DNA of 64,000 nt from Flavobacteriales bacterium (GTDB taxonomy: Bacteria; Bacteroidota; Bacteroidia; Flavobacteriales_F; PHOS-HE28), in assembly GCA_013360395.1 (NCBI GenBank), contig JABWBQ010000002.1, positions 16,703-80,702 on the forward strand, given 5' to 3'. The position numbers and the translations under genes were made by a program. Each line of letters starts with the position of its first letter. Position 1 is the first letter of the stretch. The notes beneath the pieces were generated by a model. It was not told the origin of the DNA. It was given only the letters and a program-made list of their open reading frames with translations, and made no database searches. Shown here piece after piece: positions 7,484 to 36,607 of the stretch.

Positions 7484-7881
7484 GCGTTCCATACGGGATC
7501 TCCGCCAGGGATGGCAGCGGCAGCCCGGTGAAGGACCGGGCCAACAGCACCGTGGAGCGAGCAGGCCCGACGGTAGGAGGGACCCCGCAGCCCCGGTGAC
7601 GCCGGCCCGGGCCAGGCCACCACAGCGGACAGCCCGCCCGGGCGGCCTGATCAACTCATACTTTCATTCGCTCGCCATTGGATCCCCTACCTTGTACGAG
7701 ACGGAGATCCTGGAAGTGACCGGCATGGGGCCGGTAACGAACTCCTTGCAGGGTCGTGGGGAAGGCGTGGCATGAGCCGTGGAGGACGGGATCGTGAGGC
7801 GGTGCTCACCATAGTGCAACGGATCGGACTTTGCGCGTGGACGAGCGTGATGTCCTGCGAACTTGCTGATCGAACGACGAT

Positions 7882-9882: not shown

Positions 9883-12800
9883 ATGTCAACAGCCGTAGCC
9901 CCTCCATACGTCCCCAAGCACAAGATCCGCGTGGTCACCGCCGCCTCGTTGTTCGATGGTCACGATGCCGCCATCAACATCATGCGGCGGATCATCCAGA
10001 GCACCGGCGCCGAGGTGATCCACCTGGGGCACGACCGCAGCGTGGAGGATGTGGTGAACACCGCGATCCAGGAGGATGCCCACGCCATTGCCATGACCAG
10101 CTACCAGGGCGGGCACGTGGAGTACTTCAAGTACATGCACGACCTGCTGAAGGAGAAGGGCGCGGGGCACATCAAGATCTTCGGCGGCGGCGGGGGTACC
10201 ATCCTGCCCAGCGAGATCGAGGAGTTGCACGCCTACGGCATCACGCGGCTGTACCACCCGGACGATGGCCGCGCCATGGGCCTGCAGGGCATGATCAACG
10301 ACATGCTGGAGCAGGCCGACTACGACCTGAGCGACCAGGTGAACGGTGAGGCGAAGAAGCTGACCCCGCAGAACTGGACGGCCATCGCCAAGCTGATCAG
10401 CACGGCGGAGAACCACCCGCAGGTGTTCGAGAAGATCGCCGACGAGGTCCACAAGAAGGCCGCGGCCAGCAAGGCGCCGGTGCTGGGCATCACGGGCACG
10501 GGCGGTGCGGGCAAGAGCAGCATGGTGGATGAGCTGATCCGTCGTTTCGTGCTGGACCAGCCCGGCAAGACCATCGGCGTGATCAGCGTGGACCCCAGCA
10601 AGCGCAAGACCGGCGGCGCGTTGCTGGGCGACCGCATCCGCATGAACAGCATCCGCGGCGAGCGGGTGTACATGCGCAGTCTCGCTACGCGGCAGAGCAA
10701 CCTCGCGCTCAGCAAGCACGTGAAGGAAGCCGTGGCCATCCTGAAGGCAGCGGGCTTCGACCTGGTGGTGCTGGAGACCAGCGGCATCGGCCAGAGCGAC
10801 ACCGAGATCCTGGATCACAGTGATGTTTCGCTCTACATCATGACGCCCGAGTTCGGTGCGGCCACGCAGCTGGAGAAGATCGACATGCTCGACTTCGCCG
10901 ACGTGGTGGCCATCAACAAGTTCGACAAGCGCGGCGCCCTCGATGCCCTGCGCGACGTGAAGAAGCAGTACAAGCGCAACCACCAACTGTGGGACGCCAA
11001 GGACGAGGACCTGCCCGTGGTGGGCACCATCGCCAGCCAGTTCAACGACCCCGGCACCAACGCCCTCTACGCGCGGCTGATGCGCAAGATCAAGGAGAAG
11101 ACCGGCATCGAGCTCGATAGCAGCTTCCACGCGCACGACGAGATGAGCGAGAAGGTGTGGATCATCCCGCCCGCCAAGAGCCGCTATCTGAGCGAGATCA
11201 GCGAGAGCAATCGGAGGTATGATGGCAAGGTGCGCAAGCAGGCGGAGATCGCGGACAAGCTGTACGGGTTGTATTCGGCTGTACTCACCTTCGGTGGCAC
11301 TGACCTTTTGGAGTCGGAAGTCCCGAGGCCCCTGAGTCACGAGTCGGGCGCGAAAGCGACTCACGACTCACGACTTACGGACTCAGTCGACTTCCTCATT
11401 CAAAGGTTCGAAGAACTGAAGAAAGACCTGGATCCCCACCTCTGGTCCATGCTCCAGAACTGGAAGGCCGAGGAGGAACGCTACTCCGGCGAGTTCTACA
11501 CCTACACCGTGCGAGGCAAGGAGATCAAGGTGCCGAACCACAGCGAGAGCCTCAGTCACCTGAAGATCCCGAAAGTCGCGCTGCCGAAGTTCCGCAGCTG
11601 GGGCGACAAGGTGCGTTGGGCCATGCAGGAGAACACGCCCGGCTTCTTCCCCTACACCGCGGGCATCTACCCGTTCAAGCGCACCGGCGAGGACCCCGCG
11701 CGGATGTTCGCCGGCGAGGGCGGCCCCGAGCGCACCAACAAGCGCTTCCACTACGTGAGCCAGGGCATGCCCGCCAAGCGCCTCAGCACCGCCTTCGACA
11801 GCGTGACGCTCTATGGCAACGACCCCGGCCGTCGTCCCGACATCTACGGCAAGGTGGGCAACAGCGGCGTGAGCATCTGCTGCCTCGACGATGCCAAGAA
11901 GCTCTACAGCGGCTTTGACCTCAGCGACCCGAAGACCTCGGTGTCCATGACCATCAACGGTCCCGCGCCCATGCTGCTCGGCTTCTTCATGAACGCGGCG
12001 ATCGACCAGAACTGTGAGAAGTACATACGGGAGCACGGGTTGGAGAAGGAGGTGGAGAAGAAGATCAAGGAGCGCTGGGAGAAGTTGGAGAAGGCGAATG
12101 GCGAATGGTCAATGGCGAATGGAGGGCGCGGCTTTTCCCATTCACCAACTCCCATTCACCATTCACCTCGACCTCGCTACCACGGAGACATACCTGCGGG
12201 GAACGATGGTCTGGGCTTGCTCCTCCTCGGCATCACCGGCGACCAGGTCCTCCCGAAAGACGTCTACGAGAAGATCAAGGCCGAAACGCTGCAACAGGTC
12301 CGCGGCACCGTGCAGGCCGACATCCTGAAGGAAGACCAGGCGCAGAACACCTGCATCTTCAGCACCGAGTTCGCGCTGCGGCTCATGGGCGACGTGCAGC
12401 AGTACTTCATCGACAAGAAAGTCCGCAACTTTTACAGCGTCAGCATCAGCGGCTACCACATCGCGGAGGCCGGCGCCAACCCCATCAGCCAGCTCGCCTT
12501 CACGCTGGCCAACGGCTTCACCTACGTGGAGTACTACCTGAGCCGCGGCATGGACATCAACGCTTTCGCGCCGAACCTCAGCTTCTTCTTCAGCAACGGC
12601 ATGGACCCCGAGTACGCCGTGATGGGCCGCGTGGCGCGCCGCCTCTGGGCCAAGGCGCTCAAGCACCGCTACGGCGCCGACGAGCGCAGCCAGATGCTGA
12701 AGTACCACATCCAGACCAGCGGCCGCAGCCTCCACGCGCAGGAGATCGACTTCAACGACATCCGCACCACGCTCCAGGCGCTGTACGCCATCTACGACAA

Positions 12801-13401
12801 CTGCAATTCGCTCCACACCAACGCCTACGACGAGGCCATCACCACGCCCACCGAGGAAAGCGTGCGCCGCGCCATGGCCATCCAGCTCATCATCAACAAG
12901 GAGCTCGGCTTGGCCAAGAACGAGAACCCGCTGCAGGGGTCATTCATCATTGAAGAGTTGACAGACCTCGTTGAGGAAGCGGTCTTGACGGAGTTCGACC
13001 GCATCACCGAGCGTGGCGGCGTGCTGGGCGCCATGGAGACCATGTACCAGCGCGGCAAGATCCAGGAGGAAAGTCTCTACTACGAAACGCTGAAGCACAC
13101 CGGCGAATACCCGATCATCGGGGTGAACACCTTCCTCAGCAGTAAAGGATCACCGACGATCCTGCCGAAGGAAGTGATCCGTGCCACGGAAGAGGAGAAG
13201 GAGGCGCAGATCGCAACGGTGGAGAACCTCAAGGCCGCCTACGCCCCCGAAGCCGCCAAGGCCCTGAAGGACCTGCAACAAGCGGCGGTCCACAACGAGA
13301 ATATGTTCGAGGTGCTGATGGAGGCGTGTAAGTATTGCTCGCTGGGGCAGCTGACTGCGGCGATGTTTGAGGTGGGGGGGCAGTACAGGAGGAATATGTA
13401 G
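9883..13401 (+). CDS. icmF: fused isobutyryl-CoA mutase (B12-binding domain + MeaB-like G-protein chaperone + mutase catalytic domain)
   Basis: N-terminal [12 protein letters not shown] (DxHxxG B12-binding motif). Central [13 protein letters not shown]-loop, [21 protein letters not shown] and the NKFD motif of MeaB/ArgK GTPases. C-terminal [20 protein letters not shown]... and [10 protein letters not shown]... of methylmalonyl-CoA-mutase-type TIM barrels. Start taken at ATG 9883 (ORF track begins at GTG 9814). Confidence 0.85.
11321..11395 (+). repeat. in-frame nested palindromic insertion inside icmF (codes [28 protein letters not shown])
   Basis: Outer arms cggaagtc/gacttcc. Inner arms gagtcacgagtcg / cgactcacgactc around gggcgcgaaagc. 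It lies in the linker after the GTPase domain and is absent from the expected mutase consensus. Confidence 0.5.
12093..12168 (+). repeat. in-frame hairpin insertion with tandem 9-mers inside icmF (codes ...[25 protein letters not shown]...)
   Basis: Left arm ggcgaatggcgaatggtcaatggcgaatggag. Right arm ctcccattcaccaactcccattcaccattcacc is its imperfect reverse complement, with loop ggcgcggcttttc. Confidence 0.55.
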
Positions 13402-13430
13402 CAGTAGCGTGGGAGGTTAACTTTGAGGAA

Positions 13431-13736
13431 ATGCCCAAGCTGTACGAGTACTTCGGTCTCATCTTTCTGTTCTACAGCGACGATCATGACCCCATGCATC
13501 TTCATGTGCGGCATGGCGACCGCGAGGGTATCGTCATGCTCATCATCGTGGAGGGCAATCTGGTTGAACTGCGTTGGCGGGCTAAACGCGGGGCGGCCAT
13601 GCTGAATGAAAAGGAACAGCGCGAGGCCGAGGCGTTCGTACGGGCCATGAAGAGCGACATCGTCGCCAAGTGGACCGCCTTCTACGTCGAACACAAGCGC
13701 ATCAAGCCTGAGCGCATAACCCGCCGGATCAAATGA
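13431..13736 (+). CDS. DUF4160 domain protein
   Basis: MPKLYEYFGLIFLFYSDDHDPMHLHVRHGD... matches the DUF4160 N-terminal signature (MP..F.G..I.FY.DH.PPH H). Begins 30 bp after the icmF stop. Confidence 0.75.
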   Translation: MPKLYEYFGLIFLFYSDDHDPMHLHVRHGDREGIVMLIIVEGNLVELRWRAKRGAAMLNEKEQREAEAFVRAMKSDIVAKWTAFYVEHKRIKPERITRRIK

Positions 13737-14050
13737 AGATCGCTGAGGACGTCCGTATCAAGAAGGCCACCTATATGGGTGACTACATCATTCGATTCGC
13801 CTTCACCGATGGCCATGTGAGCGAGATAGACTTCCATCCCTTCCTCAGCGCGGCCGGGCAAAATCCCATGAACAGCCAGTATTTGGATGTCCTGCGCTTC
13901 CGGGAGTTCAAGCTGCACCGCAATGTGGATGTGTACTGGGATGATTGGGAGATGTGCTTCCGGTTCGAGACGCTCTACGCGGGGAAGCTGCCGAAGATGC
14001 CAGCACCGCAACGGCGATCGGTTCGACGAAAGGTGACGGCCAACGCGTGA
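13733..14050 (+). CDS. DUF2442 domain protein
   Basis: ATGA overlap with DUF4160. ...YIIRFAFTDGHVSEIDFHPFL... is typical of DUF2442, the usual partner of DUF4160. Confidence 0.7.
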   Translation: MKIAEDVRIKKATYMGDYIIRFAFTDGHVSEIDFHPFLSAAGQNPMNSQYLDVLRFREFKLHRNVDVYWDDWEMCFRFETLYAGKLPKMPAPQRRSVRRKVTANA

Positions 14051-14058
14051 AGAACGCC

Positions 14059-14355
14059 ATGGTCATCGGCGTGAACACCTTCCTCCGCAGCAAAGGCTCA
14101 CCGACGATCCTGTCCGCCGTACGGCGGATGATCCGTGCCACGGAAGAAGAGAAAGAAGCGCAGATCGCGACGGTGGAGAACCTGAAAGCCGCCTACGCCC
14201 CCGAAGCCGCCAAAGCCCTGAAAGACCTGCAACAGGCGGCGGTGCGGAACGAGAATATGTCCGCGGTGCTGATGGAGGCGTGCAAGTACTGCTCGCTGGG
14301 TCAGCTTACGGCGGCGATGTTCGAAGTGGGGGGGCAGTATAGGAGGAACATGTGA
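14059..14355 (+). pseudogene. duplicated, ~10% diverged 3' fragment of icmF (last ~98 codons incl. stop; first reiteration)
   Basis: ...[17 protein letters not shown]...[73 protein letters not shown] against icmF residues ...[17 protein letters not shown]...[10 protein letters not shown]. Confidence 0.75.
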
Positions 14356-14374
14356 TGATGAGGATGCTGAGCGG

Positions 14375-14412
14375 GATTTGAGGTGGGGGGCAGTACAGAA
14401 GGAATATGTGAC
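14375..14412 (+). repeat. short reiteration of the icmF 3' terminus (gatttgaggtggggggcagtacagaaggaatatgtga)
   Basis: Matches icmF 13365-13401 (gtttgaggtgggggggcagtacaggaggaatatgtag). Third copy of the terminus. Confidence 0.7.
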
Positions 14413-14443
14413 TGGGTACCCGGCTCTGTCTTAACTTCGTGTC

Positions 14444-14659
14444 ATGGCCTCGGCGCACAACTACATCCAACTGTCGTCCCTTCCGGAGGATGTTCGCCAG
14501 CAGGTGCTCGACTTCATCGAGTTCCTGATGCGGCGCCGTCAGGGCAACGAGCCGAAGGAGAAGCGCAAGACACCGGTGCCCGGCCTGGCCAAAGGCATGG
14601 TCACCGTGCCAGCAGACTTCGATGCACCCTTGGATGACTTCAAGGAGTACATGGAATGA
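14444..14659 (+). CDS. DUF2281-like antitoxin (VapB-type partner of the PIN toxin)
   Basis: 71 aa. ...LPEDVRQQVLDFIEFLMRR... and the C-terminal DFDAPLDDFKEYME are characteristic of DUF2281 antitoxins. ATGA overlap with the PIN gene. Confidence 0.6.
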   Translation: MASAHNYIQLSSLPEDVRQQVLDFIEFLMRRRQGNEPKEKRKTPVPGLAKGMVTVPADFDAPLDDFKEYME

Positions 14660-15042
14660 AGCTGTTGCTTGACACGCACGTCCTGCTTTGGTTCCAGGCG
14701 GGCGACCAAGCATTGCCGAAAGCGGCCGAGCAGGCCATCCGATCCGAGGCCAATGAAGCGTTCGTCAGCATGGTCTCCTTCTGGGAGATCGGACTGAAGC
14801 ATAGCATTGGCAAGCTGCCCTTACGTAAGCCGCTGGATGTATTCCTCAGCACGATCACTGAGGCAGCATTCCAGATACTCCCGCTGGACATCCCACACAT
14901 TGTTGCTTCTTCGGCACTGCCGCTGCACCACCGAGACCCGTTCGACCGGATGCTGATCGGGCAGGCGAAGCATGAAGGCATGCACCTGATCACCGTGGAT
15001 GCGCAGTTCCGGGCATACGATGTGCCACTGATCGGTTTGTGA
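14656..15042 (+). CDS. vapC: PIN domain toxin (VapC family)
   Basis: 128 aa. N-terminal LLDTHVLLW and the conserved acidic residue positions of the PIN fold. Translationally coupled to the upstream small gene. Confidence 0.75.
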   Translation: MKLLLDTHVLLWFQAGDQALPKAAEQAIRSEANEAFVSMVSFWEIGLKHSIGKLPLRKPLDVFLSTITEAAFQILPLDIPHIVASSALPLHHRDPFDRMLIGQAKHEGMHLITVDAQFRAYDVPLIGL

Positions 15043-15118
15043 TGACCATCATGCTGAGCGAAGCGAAGTCCCGCCGTAGCGACCGTGGCCGAGGAACGAG
15101 GCGTACGGACGCTGGAGC

Positions 15119-15158
15119 GGGATTCGAGGTGGGGGGGCAGTACAGAAGGAACATGTAG
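15119..15158 (+). repeat. short reiteration of the icmF 3' terminus (gggattcgaggtgggggggcagtacagaaggaacatgtag)
   Basis: Fourth copy of the icmF terminus. Lies between the PIN gene and the Fic gene. Confidence 0.7.
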
Positions 15159-15186
15159 TGCTGTTCAGCATCACCAAGATGAACAC

Positions 15187-15969
15187 ATGCCTGTGGCCCT
15201 GCTAGTCAACACATACCTGCCAGCATATCGCGCACAGCTGAACCTGCCGCTCGCTGAGCTTATCGCCACGCTCGCCGAGGAGCGCAACGGTGGCGGCGCT
15301 GACCTGCTCAACCTGTATGAGAGCGCCGTGGCCAGCAGCCAGATCGAGGGCAGCAAGGTCACCCTCGACCTTTTCAAACGCACCATGGAGGCCGCTGGGA
15401 GCGGGCCCAGACCGCGCGATGTGCAGGAAGTGGCCGATCTGGTGAGCGCCTACCGCTTCGCTCAAGTGAACCCGCTCAACATCGCCAACCTGCTCGAAGC
15501 GCACCGCATCGCATCAGCATTGCTCGTCAACGCCAACGATCGTGGCGCCTGGCGCACAAAGGGCGTTAAGGTGGGCAATGCCATCACCACCGTGTACATG
15601 GCCCCGCATCAGAGCCTGGTGCCATCGCTCATGGACCAGCTGATGGAGGAGACCGGTACGCTCTTGGATCAGAAGCTCACAATCGAAGAGGCGTTCTATT
15701 TCGCCGCGCTCCTGCACCTCGTCTTCGTCAAGGTGCATCCTTTCATCGACGGCAATGGACGCACCGGCCGTCTATTGGAGAAGTGGTTCCTCGAGAGCCA
15801 CATCGGCCCGATCGCATGGAGCATCCGCAGCGAACGCTACCTGATCCGCAACCTCGACGATTACTACGATACACTTGCCGCTGTCGGACCGGATTGGGGT
15901 AGCTTGCAATGGGACCGCTGTCTGCCCTTCATGCTGCTGTTGCCGCAGGCGCTTACCATGAAACGATAG
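15187..15969 (+). CDS. Fic family protein (Fic/Doc AMPylase-type)
   Basis: Canonical Fic motif HPFIDGNGRTGR. Start taken at ATG 15187; the ORF-track extension to 15085 runs through the repeat copy. Confidence 0.8.
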   Translation: MPVALLVNTYLPAYRAQLNLPLAELIATLAEERNGGGADLLNLYESAVASSQIEGSKVTLDLFKRTMEAAGSGPRPRDVQEVADLVSAYRFAQVNPLNIANLLEAHRIASALLVNANDRGAWRTKGVKVGNAITTVYMAPHQSLVPSLMDQLMEETGTLLDQKLTIEEAFYFAALLHLVFVKVHPFIDGNGRTGRLLEKWFLESHIGPIAWSIRSERYLIRNLDDYYDTLAAVGPDWGSLQWDRCLPFMLLLPQALTMKR

Positions 15970-16060
15970 CATTGCGAGGAAGTGATCCGTGCCACCGAGG
16001 AAGAGAAGGAGCCGCAGATCGCGACGGTGGAGAACCTGAAATCCGCCTACGCCCCCGAGG
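15966..16060 (+). repeat. partial internal copy of the icmF tail (corresponds to icmF ~13170-13262: ...[25 protein letters not shown]...)
   Basis: gaagtgatccgtgccaccgaggaagagaaggagccgcagatcgcgacggtggagaacctgaaatccgcctacgcccccgag matches the icmF coding sequence and then diverges. Confidence 0.6.
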
Positions 16061-16129: not shown

Positions 16130-17173
16130 TCAAGGGAAACAGAATCCGCCGGGGATGATGCCCGCTAGGAAGCTGCCGAGCTCCGTTCCGCCGGGGCTGT
16201 ACCGAAGGACCACACCGTGTTGCACGTAATCGACCGCATCGGAGACGTAGATGGTACCATTGTCCGGATCCACGCCGAGGCCGTAGAAGTTGCGGTTGTC
16301 GGCGGGGATGAAGGCATTGGTCGGCAGGACGCTGTCGTGGATGGCCATGCGGTACACCCCGCCGTCGAGGAAGTACAGCACATCGTGTGCGTCGTTGATG
16401 GTGAGCCGCCACGGTGATGCGGAAGCGGGAAAGGCGAAGCTGGCCTCCACCGCGAGCGTGGCGGGATCGAAGCGATGCAGTGCCGGGGCGATGCCGCCGC
16501 CCATGGACCCGCCGCAGAGGACCCAGAGCCTGCCGTTGGCATCCTGCCGGATGCTGCTGCCCCCGATGGAGACGGGGATGCTGTCGATGAGCTGGTCCGT
16601 CGCGGTGTCGATCACCAGCACCTGGTCGCCTTCCGGTGCGGTGACGAAGGCTTTTCCGTAGGCGAGCGCCAACTCCTCCGTCCGCCCGGGCACGGGGATG
16701 CTGCCGGTGATGGTGTTGGTGACCAGGTCCACCACGGCGATGGCATCCGCGAACAGGTCGGTCACGTAGGCCTTGCCATTGCTCACGGGCAGCAGGTAGC
16801 GCGGCGAACTGAACCCGGTGATGGTCGCGGTGGCGACGAAGGTCTGCGGGTCCACCACCACCACCTTGCCGGAGTTGTTCACGACCAGGTAGCCGCGGTC
16901 GTTGAACAGCGTCATGCTCTGGCACACATCCCCCAGCGCGCTGCCGTTCGCGGGCGCGTAGAGGTCCTCCACGGTGGTGCCGTTCGTCCTGTCGTGGTAG
17001 CTCACCGTCGCGTTGCCCCATCCGAAGTTGCCCTCGTTGGTGATGTACACCCCGTCAGAGCCGACCACGACCGGCGTGTCGTCCGGTGGTCCCGGTCGGT
17101 CCTTGCGGCAGGACGACGATCCCAGGGCGAGCAATGCGAGGCAGAGGAGCAGGAGCTTAGTACGCATGGGCAA
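16130..17173 (-). CDS. YncE-like beta-propeller lipoprotein (DUF5074-like), B12-uptake-locus associated
   Basis: Lipoprotein signal ...LALGSSSC. Repeated YVTD/IYVSD-type propeller motifs. Last gene of the riboswitch-controlled operon. Confidence 0.55.
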   Translation of the reverse strand: MPMRTKLLLLCLALLALGSSSCRKDRPGPPDDTPVVVGSDGVYITNEGNFGWGNATVSYHDRTNGTTVEDLYAPANGSALGDVCQSMTLFNDRGYLVVNNSGKVVVVDPQTFVATATITGFSSPRYLLPVSNGKAYVTDLFADAIAVVDLVTNTITGSIPVPGRTEELALAYGKAFVTAPEGDQVLVIDTATDQLIDSIPVSIGGSSIRQDANGRLWVLCGGSMGGGIAPALHRFDPATLAVEASFAFPASASPWRLTINDAHDVLYFLDGGVYRMAIHDSVLPTNAFIPADNRNFYGLGVDPDNGTIYVSDAVDYVQHGVVLRYSPGGTELGSFLAGIIPGGFCFP

Positions 17174-18143
17174 CGATGAGCGGGTGTGTGATGCGCTTGC
17201 CGGGCATCAGGACCTCCAGGAAATACGCGCCTGGGCGCAGTCCGTTGAGGTCCAGGTCGAGGATGTGCATGCCGACCGCCGGCCAGGTCCGCACCGGGCG
17301 GCCCTGGACATCGACGAGGATGATGGTGGTGGCCGTGGGCTCCGGGAGGCTCAACCGGGTGCTGCCGCAGGCGGGGACGGGGTAGAGGTGCGGCACGGCC
17401 TCCGGCGGGCCGTCCATGCCGACCGGTCCCTGGTGGATGACGCCCACGGCATCCAGGTCGAATCCGCCGGAGGCGAAGGGCGTGCTCCACGGGTCGTTGA
17501 TCTTTTGGCCCAGATGGTCGTGCGTGGCGTAGGCCTCCTGGATGCAACCGACCACATCCACGATCCGCACGTGGGTGATGGCGGTCACGTCCAGGCCGGG
17601 AGCGCCGGCGAGCTGGTCCAGGTCGAAGGGGGTGCCGAAGCCGCCGCGGTATTTCCCCGCGAGGTTGTCGACCTGGGTCGCATCCACCGCGCCGAACCCT
17701 TCCACCTGGGTGGTGGTCTGGGTGTTGCTGGTGGCCGGGAAGCGCACGAAGGTGGTGCCGTCGCTGCTCACCTCCACGAAGGCGAGCTCCAGGTAAGTGT
17801 CGCTGAAACTGTTCTCGAACACGGCGAAGTCCCAGCCGGGGCCGTTGGTGAGGGGCTGGGCGAAGGTGAGCGTGGCGGTGCCGCCATCGCCCAGGCTCAC
17901 CACCCCGTTGGTGCCCGCTGCGCCGGTGCCCAGGGAGTCGGCGCCCGTGCTGGCGGGGCCAAGGCCCGGGTCGGTGATGTCCATCGGACCGCGTTGCACG
18001 GTGCAGCCGGTGGCCCAGGCGATGAGGATCGTGCTGTCCTGCGCGATGGCGGTGGTGCCGGGCTGTCCCGCGGGTGGCGGGAACTGCGCACGGGCGGGGA
18101 GCACGGCGAGCAGCAAGGCGGCGCAGAGGGAGGGATGTTTCAT
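17157..18143 (-). CDS. cell-surface protein (DUF4465-like) with T9SS C-terminal domain
   Basis: True start at internal MKHPSLCAALLLAVLPARAQ (signal peptide). The ORF-track N-terminal 168 aa are a low-complexity artefact. C-terminal ...TTIILVDVQGRPV....PGAYFLEV... is CTD-like. Overlaps btuB-like by 4 nt. Confidence 0.5.
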   Translation of the reverse strand: MKHPSLCAALLLAVLPARAQFPPPAGQPGTTAIAQDSTILIAWATGCTVQRGPMDITDPGLGPASTGADSLGTGAAGTNGVVSLGDGGTATLTFAQPLTNGPGWDFAVFENSFSDTYLELAFVEVSSDGTTFVRFPATSNTQTTTQVEGFGAVDATQVDNLAGKYRGGFGTPFDLDQLAGAPGLDVTAITHVRIVDVVGCIQEAYATHDHLGQKINDPWSTPFASGGFDLDAVGVIHQGPVGMDGPPEAVPHLYPVPACGSTRLSLPEPTATTIILVDVQGRPVRTWPAVGMHILDLDLNGLRPGAYFLEVLMPGKRITHPLIVAHAY

Positions 18144-20050
18144 GGTTTCGACGGCCGGTGGAACTGCATGCTCACCCCGAGCTGGTAGTTGCGCATGGGC
18201 ATGGGCCGGTTGAGCATGGCTTCGTAGACCGTGTTGAGGATGTTGTTGCACCGGGCCTCGATGCTGAAGGTGCAGCGCTTCAGCGGGGGCGGCCGGTAGG
18301 CGAACCGCACGTTGGCCAGCCAGTAGGGCTCCAGGTAGGCCCGGTTGTCCGTGCTCGTGTACCGGTAGCCGGTGTAGCTCAGGGTGCCGGTGAGGGAGTA
18401 CCCCTGGTAGTTGAGGCCGAGCCGTCCCCGGCCGCTGTACATCGGCACATAGATCAGCTGTTTGTCCACCGAGGCGTCGTTGGCGCTGGTGCGGATCCGG
18501 TTGGTGGAGACGACGTGGTCGGTGAGCACCGCGAGCTGCACGCCCAGACGGCCCAGGTGGAAGTTCGCGGTGGTGTTCGTTTCCACCCCGCGGCTCCAGA
18601 CCTGCATCAGGTTGCGCGGGCTCCAGTAGGCGGGACCGGGCGTCCACTGGATCCAGTCGTCGATGAGCCGGTTGAACCAGGTGACCTCGCTGCGCACGGT
18701 GAGGCTTCTCCAGGTGCGGTGAAGCACTGCGCCCAGGTCGCCGCTGTAGCCTTGTTCGGAACGCAGGTCCGGGTTGCCGCCGGGCTGCCAGTGGAGGTCG
18801 TTGAACGAGGGCGTCCTGTACACTTTGGAGGCCTGCGCCTTCAGGGTCAACCAGCGCAGCACGACCTGCTCGGCGCCGAGGGAGAAGGTGAACGGCACGG
18901 CATGGCCATCGAGCACTTCCTGCCGCGCGGAGGCGCTGGCCACGAGGTGTTCGTTCCCGCTGGTGTACCGATAGGCGGCGAAGAGGGCGATGCGGTCCTG
19001 CCGGGGCTCCTGGGGGTATCCGTCCGCGGCGGCCCGCGCGTAGGTGCCGTTGAGGCCCAGGTGAACGTGGTGGCGTCGGGCGGGCTGCAAGCGCGTTTCC
19101 GCCTCGGCGATCAAGGTGCGCGAGCGGTTCAAGGCGGGCGCGGCGCCATCGGCGGCGTACCAGTCCAGGCGCTCGTCGAACCAGGCGACGCGTGCGCTGG
19201 TGGTCGCCCGATCCCCGGTGCGCTGCCAGTCCGCCGTGAGCCGCAGGCTTTGGTCGAGCTGCCGTGCGCTGCCTGGCGGTTCCACGGTGGTGGGGGGGAT
19301 GCGCCTGTCGCTTTCCTGGTACCAGGCGTGCGTACCGAGGCGCTGCCGGTCGGTCAGGCGCACATGCACATCGCCCAGGAGGCCGCGTTGCAGGAATGCG
19401 GCATCGGCGCGGTGCTGGTCCGGTCCGTCGCCGGCGGTGTTCCGGGGCAGGGTGAGGTCATTGTCGGCGGTGGCGTTGTACGCGGCAAGGCCCACGCTGA
19501 GCCTTCTTCCGGACCGTTGCACGCGCACCCGTTGCCGCAGGTCGGCGAAGCTGCCGATGGAAAGCCCGGCATCCACGCGCAGGCCGTCGTTGAAGAAGGG
19601 CAGGGCGTGGAGCAGGACCGCACCGCCGACCGCCCCGCTGCCCCAGAGGGCCGTGCTGCCGCCGTATTGCACGGCGATGCTGTTGGCCACCTGCACGGGC
19701 AGGAGCGACAGGTCAAGCTGGCCGTTCATGGGGCTGCCGATGTTGAACCCGTTCCAGAGCACGGCGGTGTGGAAGGCGCTTCCGCCGCGGAACGCGGCGG
19801 TGGCCAGCCCGCCGGGCCCGTAGCTCTTCACGAAGACGGGGGTCTCCTCGGTCAGCAGGCGGCCCAGGTCGGAGAAGCCGTGGTGCGCCAGTGCGGCGCT
19901 GTCCATCACGACGAGTTTCGTTCCGGGCGTCGCGGTGATGCGCGGCGCCACCACTTCCACGGCCCGGAGCAGCACCGTGTCCGTGAGCGACTGGCCGCAG
20001 AGGAGCGACCCCGCGACACAGGCACCGATGGACAGGAGCGGTCGCCGCAT
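18140..20050 (-). CDS. btuB: TonB-dependent outer-membrane receptor, BtuB-like (vitamin B12)
   Basis: 636 aa. N-terminal plug (DTVLLRAVEVVA... TonB-box-like). Beta-barrel with C-terminal ...LGVSMQFHRPSKP ending in an aromatic-rich motif. Sits in a cobalamin-riboswitch operon. Confidence 0.75.
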   Translation of the reverse strand: MRRPLLSIGACVAGSLLCGQSLTDTVLLRAVEVVAPRITATPGTKLVVMDSAALAHHGFSDLGRLLTEETPVFVKSYGPGGLATAAFRGGSAFHTAVLWNGFNIGSPMNGQLDLSLLPVQVANSIAVQYGGSTALWGSGAVGGAVLLHALPFFNDGLRVDAGLSIGSFADLRQRVRVQRSGRRLSVGLAAYNATADNDLTLPRNTAGDGPDQHRADAAFLQRGLLGDVHVRLTDRQRLGTHAWYQESDRRIPPTTVEPPGSARQLDQSLRLTADWQRTGDRATTSARVAWFDERLDWYAADGAAPALNRSRTLIAEAETRLQPARRHHVHLGLNGTYARAAADGYPQEPRQDRIALFAAYRYTSGNEHLVASASARQEVLDGHAVPFTFSLGAEQVVLRWLTLKAQASKVYRTPSFNDLHWQPGGNPDLRSEQGYSGDLGAVLHRTWRSLTVRSEVTWFNRLIDDWIQWTPGPAYWSPRNLMQVWSRGVETNTTANFHLGRLGVQLAVLTDHVVSTNRIRTSANDASVDKQLIYVPMYSGRGRLGLNYQGYSLTGTLSYTGYRYTSTDNRAYLEPYWLANVRFAYRPPPLKRCTFSIEARCNNILNTVYEAMLNRPMPMRNYQLGVSMQFHRPSKP

Positions 20051-20056
20051 GCCCTC

Positions 20057-21169
20057 CTACTGCACGACGATCGTACGCTTCGCGGTGCCGGTGTGCACCA
20101 CGTAGGCCCCGGCCGGCCAGGTGCTCACATCAACGCTGCGCACGCCGGTGCCCACGGGCAGCCGGGCCATGTGCCTGCCGGTGATGTCGTACACCGTGAT
20201 GGCCTGTGCGGCGTGGCCGGTGTTCAGGTGGAGCAGGTCGGTGGCCGGCTGGGGGTAGGCCTGCAGGAGCTCCTGGCTGGTCTCGGGAAGGCTTGTCGGG
20301 CCGGAGGCTGCCACGGGAAGGTCGGGCCGCAGGGCCGGTGCGAAGTCGGTGTACGAACAGCCGAAGAGCTCGCCGTTCGTAACCGTGTCGCTCACGCCCA
20401 TGTTCATGCTCCAATTGCCCAGGTTGGTCGCGCTCCAGGTGCTCCAGAAGGCGGGGGAGCCGCCGATGCCGGCGTGGGTGCCGTAGGTGATGTCGTTCAG
20501 GAAGCCGCCCACGATCACCACCTCGAGGAGCGGGTCGGCCGCGGCGATGGCGTTCATCATCGTCTGGCCGTCGGTGGTCCCGTCGAACCGGTAGCCCCAC
20601 GCATACGAATCCGTTCCGCTGCCATCCTGGAAGTCGATGACCAGCACGGCGCTGTTCGTCCCCGTGCCGACCCAGTAGGTGACGTCGCTGGCGGTGAACT
20701 GGAAGGGGGCGAAGGCGGCGAACGGTTCGGTCGGCGCCAGCGCCGGTGCGAAGTCCGTGTACGAGCAGCCGAACCACTCCCCGTTGGAAAGTACCTCGCC
20801 GATCCCGCTGTTCATGGCCATCGTGGCGATGTCGGTACCGGTCCAGGTGCTCCAGTAGTCGGGTGCGCCACCGATGCCGGCATGCACCCCGTAGGTGATG
20901 TCGTTGAGGAAGCCCCCCACGATGGCCACGTCGAGGTTCGTGTCCGCGGCGGCCACGTCGTTGAGCATGGTCCCGGCCGTGGCGGTCCCGTCGTGCAGGT
21001 AGCCCCAGGCGAAGCTCTGGCCGTCGAAGCTGCCGTCCTGGAAGTCGATCACCAGCACCGACGAATCGGTGCCCGAGCCGACCCAGTACTGCACGTCCTG
21101 GAGGGAGAATTGGGCTTGTGCGCTGGCCGGGGCCAGCAGCAGGGCGAGGGGGAGTATGCGTGTGTTCAT
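20057..21169 (-). CDS. secreted tandem-repeat protein with T9SS C-terminal sorting domain (first gene after the cobalamin riboswitch)
   Basis: Start at internal MNTRILPLALLLAPASAQAQ. Two ~140-aa internal repeats (...VQYWVGSGTDSSVLVIDFQDGS...GGFLNDITYGVHAGIGG... and ...VTYWVGTGTNSAVLVIDFQDGS...GGFLNDITYGTHAGIGG...). CTD ...ITVYDITGRHMARLPVG...GAYVVHTGTAKRTIVVQ. Confidence 0.6.
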   Translation of the reverse strand: MNTRILPLALLLAPASAQAQFSLQDVQYWVGSGTDSSVLVIDFQDGSFDGQSFAWGYLHDGTATAGTMLNDVAAADTNLDVAIVGGFLNDITYGVHAGIGGAPDYWSTWTGTDIATMAMNSGIGEVLSNGEWFGCSYTDFAPALAPTEPFAAFAPFQFTASDVTYWVGTGTNSAVLVIDFQDGSGTDSYAWGYRFDGTTDGQTMMNAIAAADPLLEVVIVGGFLNDITYGTHAGIGGSPAFWSTWSATNLGNWSMNMGVSDTVTNGELFGCSYTDFAPALRPDLPVAASGPTSLPETSQELLQAYPQPATDLLHLNTGHAAQAITVYDITGRHMARLPVGTGVRSVDVSTWPAGAYVVHTGTAKRTIVVQ

Positions 21170-21288
21170 CCGGTGGGGGTGTGTGGTTGCCTTGTTCAAG
21201 CTCCCAGGATGAAGTGCCGTGGAGATGCGCGAAGCGGCGCACGTTCCGGGCTTGCTCCTTTTCCTGGAAGCAAATGCCGTTCGTGCTG

Positions 21289-21445
21289 GCGACAGGTCTT
21301 CTGGCTTGCCCGCCTTCCGGTGCCTTCCCATCCACCTTGCGGTGGGCAGTGGCCTCTTGCCGGTCGGCTGCTTCGGGCTTACAGCTTCAGGTAAAGCCCA
21401 GGATTCGCACCTGGTTCCCTTTTCACCCCGGTGTGACCCGGGGAT
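21289..21445 (-). ncRNA. cobalamin (AdoCbl) riboswitch
   Basis: Minus-strand sequence ...GGGUGAAAAGGGAACCAGGUGCGAAUCCUGG...GGCCACUGCCCACCGCAAGGUGGAUGGGAAGGCACCGG...GCCAGAAGACCUGUCGCC contains the AAxxGGGAA / GGUG.AAUCC core, the GCCACUG B12 box, GGGAAGGC and the GCCAG.AGACCUG 3' element. ~120 nt upstream of the operon's first start codon. Confidence 0.8.
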
Positions 21446-21605
21446 CGACAGCGCGGCGAATGTAGGCGATCGAGGCCGCCGGCCAACAGGGAACGGTCAG
21501 GAACGGGAGAATGGCCCGGGGCCGGAGCGCCGACCGTGCTACGGGGGTGCGGCCGCGGCACTGCGGGGATCGTCAAATAAAAGTAAATAAATACCGGTAT
21601 ATGCT

Positions 21606-28044: not shown

Positions 28045-28240
28045 TACTGGGATTATTCGTGCCTCAACGCCCTTACCGGATCGGTCTGCGCCGCCCTGGT
28101 CGCCCGGAAGCTCACGGTGAAGGTGGCGATCAACAGCACGACCAGTCCCGCGCCGGGGAATACCAGCGGCTCGATGGTGGTGCGGAAGGCGAAGTTCTCC
28201 AGCCAGCGGCCCACGCCGAACCAGGCCAAGGGTCTCGACC
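28045..28240 (-). pseudogene. orphan 3' fragment of an FtsX-family permease gene (~190 bp, ~90% identical to the 3' end of 36608-39016)
   Basis: Encodes ...NFAFRTTIEPLVFPGAGLVVLLIATFTVSFRATRAAQTDPVRALRHE*, matching ...NFAFRTTIEPLVFLGAGLVVLLIATFTVSFRAIRAAQTDPVRALRCE* of the intact gene. No 5' part is present. Confidence 0.75.
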
Positions 28241-28536
28241 TCGGCATCCTCGTTGTTCCCGGAATGGCTGTGCCATTGTTGATCGTCCGGCCATGGAGTA
28301 TGTGGATTCCTATGCTCGAAGATCGGGTGCGTGACCACCGCGTCCAGTTCAGCAGTGACCGAACATCCCGCAGTGGGCTGTCCACGCTGCTCGCGACTAC
28401 GACCGCTGTCTGTTCAATGTTCATCCTTGGGGGTGGACCTGAAAGGAGGGCGCACTACCCGCATTGTGACCAACGGTTGCGAATGGCGCGGAACGGGCAG
28501 TGCCTCCGGGACGGACGGGGATAGTTTTGGGAAACC

Positions 28537-29463
28537 ATGCGATGCCCCTATTGCGAGAGCACGAAGTCACTACTTGTGGGCCATGTCTTTTGTTCCCGGC
28601 ATGCCCATGCGGACATGAATGCATTGCGCAGCGGGACGCTTTACATCAAAACGAAAAGGCTCGAGGAAACGGCCGACCATGTTTCGCGGCTTTCCATCCG
28701 CTTGATGCTCAATGGTCGTCAATGGTACAAGGTGGATGGTGGTGATCGGCTGGTCCATCGGGACAATTTCCTGGTGATCGATCAGGGCCAGCACTACCGT
28801 ACCGCATTCAGTGGGGAGCGGGACCTGGAAATGCTCATGGTCGGTTTCCGGCCCGGATCGGCGCAGGAGGTGGCTCGAAGCCTGACCCTGGGACATGAAC
28901 AACTGCTTGACGAGCCTTGTCGGGATACGGAGGGGCCCGTGTTCGCCGCGCAGACATATACCATGGATCCCGTGATCCGCGCACTATTCTCCCAGCTCCA
29001 CGTCTTGGTTCAAACCGGGGTGGAAGACCACGCGAGCGACGATATCGAAGTGATCCATGATCGTTTGATGGAAAGGTTGATCGGGTTGCAGTCCGGTGTC
29101 CGCTTGAACATGGAACGCTTGGACCTGGTGCGACGCGCCACGCGCGTGGAGATCTGGAAACGCCTGACCATTGCACGGGAATACGCGGAAGCTCACCACG
29201 CGCATGCACTCTCCGTTGCCGACCTTGCCCGGGTGGCCTGCCTCTCTCCGCACCACTTCAAGCGGTTGTTCCGCGAAGTGTACGGGGTGCCACCGCACCG
29301 ATTCCTGCGCCAGGTGCGGTTGATGCACGCCCGCCACCTGTTGTCCGATGGTGACCGACCGGTACATGAAGTGGCCCTGGCCGTTGGGTTCAAGGATGCG
29401 AGCGCGTTCAGCCGGGTCTACCGGCAGGTCATGGGTCGAGCCCCGAGGGACGAGGAGCACTAA
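28537..29463 (+). CDS. AraC family transcriptional regulator
   Basis: C-terminal double HTH (...LSVADLARVACLSPHHFKRLFREVYGVPPHRFLRQVRLMHARHLL...VGFKDASAFSRVYRQVMG). Cupin-like N-terminal half. Confidence 0.8.
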   Translation: MRCPYCESTKSLLVGHVFCSRHAHADMNALRSGTLYIKTKRLEETADHVSRLSIRLMLNGRQWYKVDGGDRLVHRDNFLVIDQGQHYRTAFSGERDLEMLMVGFRPGSAQEVARSLTLGHEQLLDEPCRDTEGPVFAAQTYTMDPVIRALFSQLHVLVQTGVEDHASDDIEVIHDRLMERLIGLQSGVRLNMERLDLVRRATRVEIWKRLTIAREYAEAHHAHALSVADLARVACLSPHHFKRLFREVYGVPPHRFLRQVRLMHARHLLSDGDRPVHEVALAVGFKDASAFSRVYRQVMGRAPRDEEH

Positions 29464-29501
29464 GGAACGCACTTCTGAAAATAGCCCGTTCCGCACATGG
29501 G

Positions 29502-30590
29502 ATGAATGCGTCGGCGACAAACCTTGCCAAGGTCCACATCCCGTTCCCATTCGGGGTGGTAACACAGGCCATGATCCCCTTCCGCACGACCCTTGCCCTT
29601 TGCTTCGGTTGCCTTCCTTTCACCGATCAGGCACAAGTCCTAACCGCACTTGATGTTCTTCCCCTGCTTGGGGATACTTTCCGCTACTACGGCGTGGAGG
29701 ACGATGAACTCTTCGATCCGGGGGAAGCTGGTTCCGGCGTGGTCTGGGACCATGAAGATCTGGTGGTCGAATTGGGGAGCTATACGCAGATCCGGCCGAT
29801 CGAACCCTCGACCGCACCCGGCATATCGACCTATCCAGCCAGCGACCTGGTGCTCGAGCGCACCATCAGTATGACGGCCGACCTGGAAAGGACCTACTTC
29901 GACCTCGACACCACGGGTTTGCGCGAGCTGGGTTCCACCGGCGATCCGTTGAGCTACGTGTTCGATGTGCCTGAGCGGGTGCAACCGATCCCGATGGTGT
30001 TCGACTCGGTATACACTGGATCGTACTGTCACAATTCCAGCGGTTTTGGCCCGTCGTACCATACCTGCGGTGAGACTTCCCATGTACTCGACGGCATCGG
30101 CACGCTGATCATGCCGTACGGTACCTTCAACGGTGTGCGGCGGACCACCTACTACAGGTATCATGTCAACGACGACTCACCGACGGATACCTCCCATGTC
30201 ACCTATCACCGTTGGTGGATCCCCGGGCTACGGCGCCCTGTTCTGGAGCTTTCCCGGTTCACAGGATCGAACGGTGTGGTGCTCTCCAACGCCAGGACCC
30301 TGACGCCATCCAGTGTATTGGGCGTTCCGGAGCTCGGAGCGAGGATGATCAGTGTGAGCCCCAACCCATTTGTGGACCGGGTCGAGGTGGTCCTGGCGGA
30401 ACCCATCCGGAAGGAGGGTACGGTCCGTGTTCTCGCCGCCGATGGTCGCGGCCTATATGACGGGAGGATCACGACCGGTACTTCACGGATCCTTGTGGAC
30501 CTGGGCAACCTTCCTTGCGGAATGCTCCTGATGGAGCTTGAACTGGACAGTGGCCGCAGGACATACAAACTGATACATCAGCAACAATGA
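29502..30590 (+). CDS. secreted hypothetical protein with T9SS C-terminal sorting domain
   Basis: Internal signal peptide MIPFRTTLALCFGCLPFTDQAQ. CTD ...ISVSPNPFVDRVEVVL....GLYDGRI.... Confidence 0.55.
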   Translation: MNASATNLAKVHIPFPFGVVTQAMIPFRTTLALCFGCLPFTDQAQVLTALDVLPLLGDTFRYYGVEDDELFDPGEAGSGVVWDHEDLVVELGSYTQIRPIEPSTAPGISTYPASDLVLERTISMTADLERTYFDLDTTGLRELGSTGDPLSYVFDVPERVQPIPMVFDSVYTGSYCHNSSGFGPSYHTCGETSHVLDGIGTLIMPYGTFNGVRRTTYYRYHVNDDSPTDTSHVTYHRWWIPGLRRPVLELSRFTGSNGVVLSNARTLTPSSVLGVPELGARMISVSPNPFVDRVEVVLAEPIRKEGTVRVLAADGRGLYDGRITTGTSRILVDLGNLPCGMLLMELELDSGRRTYKLIHQQQ

Positions 30591-31930
30591 TCAATTCAAG
30601 GATCCCCTGTCGGTTCACGGTCGTCGCTTGGGCGATGGTCCTTAACACATTCATGGCGTGTGCTCAGGAGCAACTTCCCCGGCGTGTCTTTCTTGGGGTC
30701 CGCATGGAGAACGTCACCGATGACATGCGGCGGATCATGGGCGTGGGTGACTGGCCGGCCGTGCTGCTGAGCGAAATACTACCGGGTGGATCCGCGGAAA
30801 AGACGGGCTGGCGGAAAGGGGACCTGCTGACGACCCTGAACGGGATCCAAGTAGGGACCACGGTGGAGGTCATCGCGGAACTGGCGAACCATCAGTCGGG
30901 CAGCTCCATCACCTACCGCATACTGCGCGACAAGAAACCGGTGACCGGCAAACTGAAGTTGATCGCTTGGCCCGGGGAGAGCTACCCCGACCTCAGCGTG
31001 GAGTACACCACACATCGGACCGTCAATGGGCTGCAACGTGCCATCCTGACGCAGCAGCGGAAGAAGGGATCCGGGCGGCTCCCGTTAGTGGTCTTCATCG
31101 GTGGCATCGGCTGCTATGCCCTCGACTCGCCTCTGGATACCGCACGCAGTGAAACTCAACTGTTGAACGGATTGAGCCGGAAAGGCTTTGCCTGTGCGCG
31201 GCTGGAGAAACCGGGAATGGGGGATGCCGCACGCAGCAGCACGGGGTGTGGCGAGGTGAGCTTCATGAACGAGATGACGGGCTATGCGGAAATGATCCGG
31301 CAATTGAAGCAACGCCCAGACATCGACAGCTCGGACGTGACCATCATCGGCCACAGCATGGGGGGCGTGTTCGCGCCGATGATCGCGCAGCGCACCCCGG
31401 TCCAACGGATCATCGCCTACGGCACGATCGGGAGCAGTTTCGTGGAGTATCTGGCCAAAACACGCCGCACCATCGCAGAAGCATACGGTTGGGACGCAGC
31501 ACGCACGGACGCGTTCATCAAGGACTTTTGCGAGTGCGCCGTGTGGTACTTCGCGGACAAGCTCACCACGGCACAGGCGGCCGAGAAAAAGCCGGCCTGC
31601 GGGGAGTATGTGGGCATCTTCGACCTGCGCTCGCGAGCATACAATGAAGAGCTCTATGCCTTGAACATCCCCACGGCATGGCAGGATTTCAAAGGACGCG
31701 CGCTCCTGCTGTGGGGCAAGGCCGATTATATCGCTGCGCGGCATGACCATGAGATCCTGCGCGACATGATCCAACGGGCGAACCCCGGATCCGTCACGTT
31801 CAAGGAGATCCCTGACGCGGACCATGGCATGAACCAGGCCAACGACTTCCAAGCTGCGGTGGCGGGCAGCGGACCCTACCAGCCGGGCGTCGGGCGCGTG
31901 GTCGCGGATTGGTTGAGCACGGGACCATGA
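30587..31930 (+). CDS. PDZ domain-containing alpha/beta hydrolase
   Basis: PDZ-like segment (..VLLSEILPGGSAEKTGWRKGDLLTTLNGIQV..). Nucleophile elbow GHSMGG with downstream Asp/His candidates. Confidence 0.65.
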   Translation: MINSRIPCRFTVVAWAMVLNTFMACAQEQLPRRVFLGVRMENVTDDMRRIMGVGDWPAVLLSEILPGGSAEKTGWRKGDLLTTLNGIQVGTTVEVIAELANHQSGSSITYRILRDKKPVTGKLKLIAWPGESYPDLSVEYTTHRTVNGLQRAILTQQRKKGSGRLPLVVFIGGIGCYALDSPLDTARSETQLLNGLSRKGFACARLEKPGMGDAARSSTGCGEVSFMNEMTGYAEMIRQLKQRPDIDSSDVTIIGHSMGGVFAPMIAQRTPVQRIIAYGTIGSSFVEYLAKTRRTIAEAYGWDAARTDAFIKDFCECAVWYFADKLTTAQAAEKKPACGEYVGIFDLRSRAYNEELYALNIPTAWQDFKGRALLLWGKADYIAARHDHEILRDMIQRANPGSVTFKEIPDADHGMNQANDFQAAVAGSGPYQPGVGRVVADWLSTGP

Positions 31931-35569: not shown

Positions 35570-35575
35570 TCGCCC

Positions 35576-36508: not shown

Positions 36509-36607
36509 TGGAACCTGAATTTGTGGTGGGGTTTCATGCGCACAACATCCAATTCCGTGGGTGTCAGCATGCACTTGGCCTCGTTCTACACTTCTCACAC
36601 GCTCCCC

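Follow-up and report, generated by a model that had tools for sequence, protein, structure and literature searches.

Reiterated 3′ ends of icmF and the cassettes between them in a Flavobacteriales genome and related Bacteroidota

How do several small toxin–antitoxin (TA) cassettes come to stand in a row behind a housekeeping enzyme gene, with pieces of the 3′ end of that gene between them? The question is raised by icmF in the 64-kb stretch of contig JABWBQ010000002.1 from a Flavobacteriales bacterium analysed here (the window). The icmF product is a fused isobutyryl-CoA mutase/MeaB GTPase with B12-binding, MeaB and MM_CoA_mutase domains in public annotation; a plasmid match in the database also names the gene IcmF, and it is unrelated to the IcmF of secretion systems. 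An earlier reading made from the letters of the window alone (the sequence-only reading) had explained the array by serial site-specific integrations into the gene's 3′ end. The answer preferred here, to which an even chance of being correct is given, is that the icmF 3′ end undergoes sequential displacement anchored by homology, the retained copies then serving to reshuffle the cassettes. Related loci compared with the window carry labels of the form L###, and most of them are metagenome contigs or metagenome-assembled genomes (MAGs). Coordinates of the features are collected in Table 1.

Displaced copies of the icmF end

Self-comparison of the window upheld the statement that the end of icmF recurs three times downstream, and the copies aligned well: the terminal 47 nt are repeated at 14309–14355 (85% identity), 14365–14411 and 15112–15158 (83%), with the third terminal core copy at 15119–15158. 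The copy described as about 300 bp long and about 10% diverged was recovered too, the 225 nt at 13175–13399 being repeated at 14129–14353 with 90% identity (87.6% with gaps over the whole copy). This displaced end abuts DUF2442 and replaces the last ~25 codons. The internal fragment placed by the sequence-only reading at 15966–16060 is real, but it starts at 15977; it corresponds to an 82-nt piece of icmF (13169–13250) that is repeated at 14123–14204 (87%) and 15977–16058 (90%). The stop codon, TAG or TGA, is the exact right end of every full copy, and the chance expectation for the 30-nt core pattern, from shuffles of the window, was zero.

The C-terminal 399 aa of IcmF are 82–92% identical across 80 Bacteroidota species, and the last codons of the gene (…CAGTAYAGRAGRAAYATG; 13363–13401) are conserved at the nucleotide level across the phylum, even where the G+C content at third codon positions (GC3) is very high, with rare AGG/AGA and AAT codons persisting at the icmF ends of 78 species (L007–L086). 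The terminal AGG AGG AAT ATG was considered as a codon-usage anomaly and this was rejected; since it is kept in nearly all of the 78 genes whatever their GC, the terminal codons are ancestral and uninformative. The working icmF tail folds no better than its shuffles (z = −0.1).

Mismatches between 18 displaced copies and the resident working ends numbered 81/51/249 on codon positions 1/2/3, and those of the 290-nt copy in the window 1/5/24. Because the mismatches concentrate on third codon positions, the copies must have diverged while encoding IcmF and under selection for its function; neutral decay or long non-coding evolution would give roughly equal counts on the three positions, unlike the pattern of the copies. 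Judged from this pattern, the displaced copies are the ends of once-functional icmF alleles, either foreign or older states of the same lineage, in agreement with their earlier description as displaced gene ends. Target-site duplication and in-situ duplication are ruled out by the same bias. Several copies are nearer to the working ends of other lineages than to their own: a copy in L138 is 93% identical to L152, and a 1-kb copy in L101 is 89% identical to L110 and 80% to its own gene. A diversity-generating retroelement was also considered and dropped, as no reverse transcriptase was present among the open reading frames (ORFs) scanned and the mismatches follow codon position and affect all bases, not adenine in particular.

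The left ends of the copies, measured from the stop codon, fell into classes at ~−25 to −48 nt, −120 to −180 nt, ~−290 to −330 nt and 1.0–1.5 kb, with a strong mode between −87 and −108 nt. Deletion between copies of the 12-nt motif ATGTTYGAGGTG may have produced the short tails from ~100-nt ones, and L138 holds the undeleted form of a junction belonging to the mini-module described below. Sliding identity between the icmF genes of L163 and L110 was 96–100% upstream and 82–86% over the last ~250 nt, and between those of the window and L007 it fell from 95–97% upstream to 67–83%; on these profiles, the 3′ part of icmF is a recombination mosaic. The loci L233 and L232 share 99.2% identity over 9.7 kb, yet the same displaced icmF copy is cut differently in the two: the L232 cut lies at −1453 nt, where the copy adjoins a type IX secretion system (T9SS) gene and a complete, diverged icmF, and the copy in L233 is at least 905 nt longer. 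The L233 copy also contains two insertions of ~190–260 nt (about 1207–1470 and 1649–1840). Five arrays have a tail copy in front of the PIN cassette, each cut at a different position, and the last 18 nt of these tails co-vary with the cassette leader. The displaced end is linked to its downstream cargo for the PIN cassette, as it is for a 190-nt element described below, and unlinked for DUF4160 (L101, L110, L224).

A second gene in the window, encoding a MacB/FtsX permease, shows a duplicated tail of the same kind. Both tail copies end at the stop codon, the distal one lies 10 nt from the next gene of the operon, to which it is still attached, and the 8.4-kb island between the tails consists of seven opposite-strand genes of lower GC3, with no recombinase among the island ORFs scanned against Pfam. 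Other non-paralogous cases of displaced tails amounted to a handful in 2.36 Mb of related loci. Because the permease gene and these few other genes share the signature, the process behind it is a general one, with icmF strongly favoured.

Arrays in related lineages and their cargo

In a sample of 80 Bacteroidota species taken without bias, extra icmF ends downstream of icmF were found in three: the closest relative of the window, with about ten copies (L007), a low-GC Bacteroidia MAG (L042) and Hymenobacter terrenus strain MIMtkLc17 (L060), whose scaffold-level RefSeq assembly bears no MAG label. About 20 further arrays came from a metagenome scan and context look-ups, giving a total of about 25 arrays and roughly 90 cassettes. 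The majority of the additional arrays belong to the high-GC clade of the window, most members of which carry icmF arrays, and at least six lie in lineages outside it; in all, arrays stand at icmF in at least seven separate lineages.

The proposal of a hotspot at the icmF 3′ end with turnover of cassettes was borne out, other cargo or another order being present in related species. The DUF4160/DUF2442 pair heads the array in the window, stands third in L007 and occurs also in L101, L110, L166 and L224; the DUF2281/PIN cassette is shared by the window, L185, L144, L224, L229 and L232. Besides these two pairs, the TA cargo includes PIN_3 with a small partner ORF and ParE- and HicAB-like pairs assigned by eye. 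The remaining cargo comprises GmrSD, a Vsr/HNH/methylase set, PD-(D/E)XK nucleases, DndB-like and Bro-N proteins, a sacsin-like ATPase with a superfamily 1 (SF1) helicase, small membrane proteins, lipoproteins and T9SS proteins. The large cargo includes opposite-strand genes. Neither an integrase nor a classical transposase was recognised in the ~25 arrays by Pfam scanning of representative cargo and inspection of the annotated genes; the sole mobility-type annotation was a PDDEXK_2 ‘nuclease family transposase’ in the Hymenobacter array. The DUF4160/DUF2442 pair occurs in public contigs at unrelated loci without gene-end repeats as well, so the cargo is not specific to the icmF hotspot. Its use as a marker of an intact recombinase-bearing element was rejected, the pair being a widespread TA module.

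Comparison with related genomes, which had been proposed as a check on cassette turnover, showed that cassettes vary between species but are identical within the species; the uniform arrays that would have refuted a hotspot are thus absent above the species level. Exact sequences of the cassette proteins were found in ~100 indexed blocks of a public-assembly collection, and gene order was the same in all ~20 contigs of the species that were read. Because the array is fixed in these ~20 contigs, events in it must be rare. No empty site could be aligned, none of ~195 related loci sharing the flanking genes of the window. The core pattern had no match in viral contigs; in plasmids the mini-module was unmatched, and the icmF tail matched just ordinary icmF and one short unannotated stretch.

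In the window, the cassette contents named by the sequence-only reading were matched by Pfam, with E-values of 3e-9 for DUF4160, 2e-19 for DUF2281, 1e-17 for PIN and 1e-14 for Fic; that of DUF2442 was 1e-4, slightly below the curated cut-off. The lower GC ascribed to the segment is present, but the dip is modest (array 0.55–0.62, icmF 0.57–0.68, downstream operon 0.64–0.73). No recombinase family was matched by Pfam among 39 distinct ORFs of the window that were scanned, consistent with the earlier statement that it holds no integrase. Rfam gave no match in the array at E ≤ 1.

A promoter-like box, TAACTTTG, lies at 13418–13425 before DUF4160, and a second at 14432–14439. Boxes of this Bacteroidetes −7 type (TAnnTT[TC]G) stand 13–20 nt past the tail stop and 4–7 nt before the cassette start codon; 13 of 62 post-core regions contain one, the background being 3% (~6.5-fold enrichment), and they are likewise placed in L007, L101, L110, L138, L178 and L185. 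The TA cassettes that have such a predicted box, of which there are many, are probably independent of icmF read-through. A corresponding −33 element would lie within the final codons of the tail.

The displacement model and its alternatives

In the displacement model, DNA from related lineages would arrive with an icmF allele and its downstream neighbours, and would recombine homologously inside the very conserved icmF, while its far end would join further downstream, either illegitimately or through short tail homology. The incoming allele would become the working end, and the old end, variably cut, would be displaced downstream together with its own cargo. The retained tails would then be direct repeats and provide portable homology for the exchange, reordering and deletion of cassettes between arrays, the cargo being self-sufficient selfish or defensive modules, restriction-like systems among them. 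We infer both the enzymology, RecA-type recombination with illegitimate joining, and the route of DNA entry. Serial site-specific integration, in contrast, is at odds with left ends ranging from ~25 nt to 1.5 kb, with the junction at −1453 nt, with the mosaic icmF, with the lack of a recombinase in ~25 arrays and with a permease gene showing the same tail duplication.

Several observations weigh against displacement. The two commonest left ends, at ~−100 and ~−37 nt, coincide with the copies of ATGTTYGAGGTG, so that the spread is uneven. The DUF4160 leader of L101, L110 and L224 is 97–100% identical from the stop codon on and the coding part 91–94%, whereas the tails before it are 77–84% identical and differ in their last 18 nt too; ordinary homologous crossovers should have co-transferred the adjacent tail. 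As read from these comparisons, the DUF4160 cassette has moved relative to the tails, with the junction within a few nt of the stop codon. Nearly all small cassettes point in the same direction as icmF, and as an anchor icmF exceeds other genes by a factor of roughly ten or more. The last point calls for a special property of icmF, which may be that it is among the longest very conserved genes and would, as such, be a good homology anchor for the DNA of other species.

The remaining objection concerns a non-coding mini-module of ~105 nt, without Rfam match, that ends in a copy of the core. It gave five matches in 2.3 Mb, each ~100 nt before a core end, and was found solely beside icmF cores. 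Its hairpin, common to five lineages, shows four compensatory base pairs and the invariant loop GAGGAACGA; hairpins unrelated to it are found at the equivalent site in L042, L128, L151, L185 and L007. This structured module is unexplained by the displacement model and leaves room for something more novel. Comparison with 15051–15158 and L144 identified the short tail copy of the window (14361–14411) as an internally deleted mini-module. The mini-module was rejected as a small ORF, the frame being kept in the window and L101 and lost in L185 and in the deleted copy; a dif-like (Xer) site was dropped because the core has no dyad symmetry by eye.

These features keep in play the main alternative, a recombinase of the integron or staphylococcal cassette chromosome (SCC) type that would act in trans and recognise the terminal ~30 nt both in icmF and in the copies. 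Such an enzyme, possibly one of the host, would insert and excise cassettes exactly at the stop codon, and every cassette would carry a tail-like site 3′; the hairpin and core of the mini-module would be a minimal site or an empty cassette, and new cassettes could still originate from illegitimate events. The sharp DUF4160 junction with its unlinked tails speaks for this explanation, as do a DUF2442/tail-copy junction that is the same in L007, L101 and L166, the conserved and covarying hairpin found beside the core only, the hairpins immediately 5′ to the core in L042 and L128, both of them distant lineages, the co-orientation of small cassettes, the clustering of left ends at the repeated 12-nt motif and the presence of icmF arrays in at least seven separate lineages; a precedent is given by the integron-like rAID-1 arrays of Bacteroidales (10.1101/471110). 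Nevertheless, neither the arrays and their surroundings nor the 39 ORFs scanned in the 64-kb window yielded a recognisable recombinase, copy length extends from 25 nt to 1.5 kb, and the hairpins, which only some sites carry, lie at anywhere from −25 to −55 nt. The third-codon bias marks functional gene ends and not long-lived non-coding sites. The 3′ sites of the PIN cassette differ between the window and L185, while its 5′ tails are cut in five different ways; the strain-level junction at −1453 nt, the same signature at an unrelated permease gene and the lack of strain-level turnover within the species point in the same direction. On balance a recombinase acting in trans is possible but unlikely.

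In its most specific form, this alternative would be an undescribed integron-like system of Bacteroidota, with the icmF stop region as attachment site, sites made of a hairpin and the ~30-nt terminus, and a recombinase in trans mobilising TA and defence cassettes; this is regarded as doubtful. A combination of the two explanations is plausible, in which cassettes arise by displacement and are afterwards rearranged at the conserved core, whatever the enzyme.

A third explanation takes the arrays as decayed integrative elements that accreted at the icmF 3′ end in the manner of cis-mobilizable elements (CIMEs) and all lost their integrases. Direct repeats of the 3′ end of a conserved gene around foreign DNA are the classic signature of integrative and conjugative or mobilizable elements (ICEs and IMEs) in streptococci and of SCC elements, a signature that the icmF arrays fit, and their cargo is typical island content. 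Against this, the ~25 arrays, which come from many lineages and comprise roughly 90 cassettes, contained no recognisable integrase remnant, cassette size goes down to 0.1–0.7 kb and the repeats are not constant in length, so that decay of such elements is improbable. Finally, a metagenome assembly artefact or an in-situ tandem duplication without biological meaning is hardly credible: related loci are indeed mostly metagenomic, but the copies differ by 10–25% and begin at different points on the left, independent assemblies of many samples gave the identical array, the H. terrenus assembly carries an array of the same kind, and recent in-situ duplication with neutral decay is excluded by the third-position bias.

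No description of an icmF-linked hotspot was found in the literature searched. The view that the array cannot be mapped onto a described system was nevertheless too strong, with parallels in SCC islands, in V. cholerae and in integrase-less hotspots. In staphylococci, SCC composite islands are tandem elements at the 3′ end of rlmH (orfX), many of them without a recombinase, bounded by direct repeats that include the last codons and stop of the gene. Units of the icmF arrays are likewise bounded by terminus repeats including the stop codon. The repeats of SCC elements are short and of fixed length, however, and their Ccr serine recombinases are known and present in some elements, whereas at icmF repeat length varies between 25 nt and 1.5 kb and a recombinase was not found. 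The modules of Prochlorococcus tycheposons mostly lack an integrase, but their target is a tRNA gene and intact integrase-bearing elements are known, whereas the icmF arrays stand at a protein gene. The likeness lies in the tRNA-fragment arrays, where tandem cargo modules are placed between partial target copies (10.1101/2020.12.28.424599).

The auxiliary type VI secretion system (T6SS) clusters of Vibrio cholerae carry orphan arrays built by sequential displacement through homology-facilitated illegitimate recombination (HFIR), and share with icmF arrays a conserved upstream anchor, older genes kept downstream, the lack of a recombinase and a record of exchanges (PMC9711863). Of the hallmarks of displacement of the HFIR kind, mosaic anchor alleles, former functional copies and variable distal junctions are present at icmF; linkage of the displaced end to its downstream cargo is seen for the PIN cassette and the 190-nt element and fails for DUF4160. 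The anchor in V. cholerae is a secretion-system gene and the cargo consists of effector–immunity pairs, whereas here the anchor is a housekeeping enzyme gene whose own 3′ end is left behind, the cargo consists of TA and defence modules and arrays reach up to ten units. Hotspots of horizontal gene transfer (HGT) that lack integrases are kept by homologous recombination in flanking core genes and resemble the icmF locus in high turnover beside a recombinogenic core gene without recognisable mobile-element genes (PMC5635113). Such hotspots have two flanking core genes and no repeats, whereas the icmF locus has one conserved flank, the second homology arm being supplied, unlike in the hotspot model, by partial copies of the gene end.

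Integron-like arrays exist in Bacteroidota, as rAID-1 in Bacteroidales shows (10.1101/471110). Integrons and rAID-1 resemble the icmF arrays in their small, mostly co-oriented cassettes between repeated sites, and TA cargo is frequent in chromosomal integrons. The icmF arrays, in contrast, are headed by icmF, with no adjacent intI- or XerD-like recombinase. Integron attC sites, one to each cassette, are imperfect palindromes that keep their structure more than their sequence, whereas the sites here are copies of a coding-gene end with third-position divergence, and integron cassettes are mostly promoterless, whereas many icmF-array cassettes have their own promoter box.

Gene-gain hotspots mostly lack recognisable mobile-element genes, and the route of their assembly has largely been deduced from statistics. 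The icmF locus provides a physical record in which each exchange left the previous icmF end, datable and sourceable by its synonymous differences; because of this, the order, origin and junctions of acquisitions would be directly readable. The locus is unusual among recombination hotspots in preserving such a readable series of displaced gene ends, and it makes the mechanism testable, homologous and illegitimate recombination against a hidden site-specific enzyme. TA and defence modules of environmental Bacteroidota collect behind one of the most conserved genes of the phylum, and the partial icmF copies may be portable homology arms that spread cassettes between species without mobile-element machinery.

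Flanks of the array and further repeats

The native distal flank of the array is a convergent operon for B12 uptake, recognised as such by the sequence-only reading and now by its cobalamin riboswitch, the sole Rfam match in the whole window, and its TonB-dependent receptor. It converges on icmF, itself encoding a B12-dependent enzyme.

Table 1. Positions of icmF, its displaced ends, the cassettes and neighbouring features (window coordinates unless a locus label is given).
Feature	Position	Strand	Basis or remark
icmF, anchor gene of the array	9883..13401	+	ORF; 1172 aa with the annotated start of public assemblies
Working icmF 3′ terminus (core and TAG stop), reiterated downstream	13365..13401	+	Sequence comparison
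12-nt motif ATGTTYGAGGTG, two copies, each encoding MFEV	13293–13304 and 13363–13374	+	Read from the sequence
Cassette 1: DUF4160 (13431–13736) and DUF2442 (13733–14050)	13402..14050	+	Pfam
Displaced icmF 3′ end, ~290 nt, TGA-terminated	14063..14355	+	87.6% identity with gaps (14063–14353)
Short tail copy, ~37 nt, TGA-terminated, preceded by ATGCTGAGCGG	14361..14411	+	Core copy 14375–14411
Cassette 2: DUF2281 antitoxin (14444–14659) and PIN/VapC toxin (14656–15042)	14412..15042	+	Pfam
Mini-module: head ATGCTGAGCGAAGCGAAG, long hairpin (~15064–15126), 35-nt tail core with TAG	15051..15158	+	Fold
Mini-module copies	L101:11409–11525(−), L185:1953–2053, L144:1555–1663(−), L138:415–540		Sequence comparison
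Cassette 3: Fic-domain gene (15187–15969)	15159..15969	+	Pfam
Internal icmF fragment, equivalent of 13169–13250, last ~115 nt lost	15977..16058	+	Most distal displaced copy
Convergent B12-uptake operon, native distal flank of the array	16130..21464	−	Pfam, Rfam, annotation
DUF5074 protein	16130–17173	−	Same operon, which also holds proteins with T9SS sorting tails
TonB-dependent receptor	18140–20050	−	Pfam; downstream of the riboswitch
Cobalamin riboswitch, 109 bits, heads the operon	21274–21464	−	Rfam
MacB/FtsX permease gene, tail duplication	36608–36790 and 28053–28232; span 28053..36790	−	94% identity, ~180 nt
GC-rich element of ~175–190 nt	L138:1605–1780, L097:7453–7625(−), L101:11238–11409(−), L163:187–358(−), L185:3546–3749		Different cargo after each

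Right after the stop of some tail copies (TAG GGCGTATCCC...) starts a GC-rich, non-coding element of ~175–190 nt, with 75–94% identity among five arrays; a weak copy is present in the window at 7507–7644(−). It may be a small dispersed repeat or an ancestral icmF flank.

Repeated gene ends were observed in two further settings. The loci L211–L220 (e.g., L212:397–6790) carry co-oriented genes for T9SS substrates, whose ends of ~180–215 nt, encoding the C-terminal sorting domain, are 76–91% identical; DUF4160/DUF2442 and PemK TA pairs lie between these genes, and here again repeated gene ends bracket TA cassettes. In L025 (region 12573–14927), a gene of 303 aa (14016–14927), 3 kb downstream of icmF and primase-like by eye, has its last ~55–90 nt repeated at 18833–18886 and 19853–19942 (89–93%); these repeats may delimit an integrated element.

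The window also contains, ~2.4 kb upstream of icmF and hence across the gene from the array, a zeta-toxin-like P-loop gene at 6656–7483 (+), directly preceded by a small ORF annotated as 75 aa in public assemblies. The gene may represent another TA-type module.

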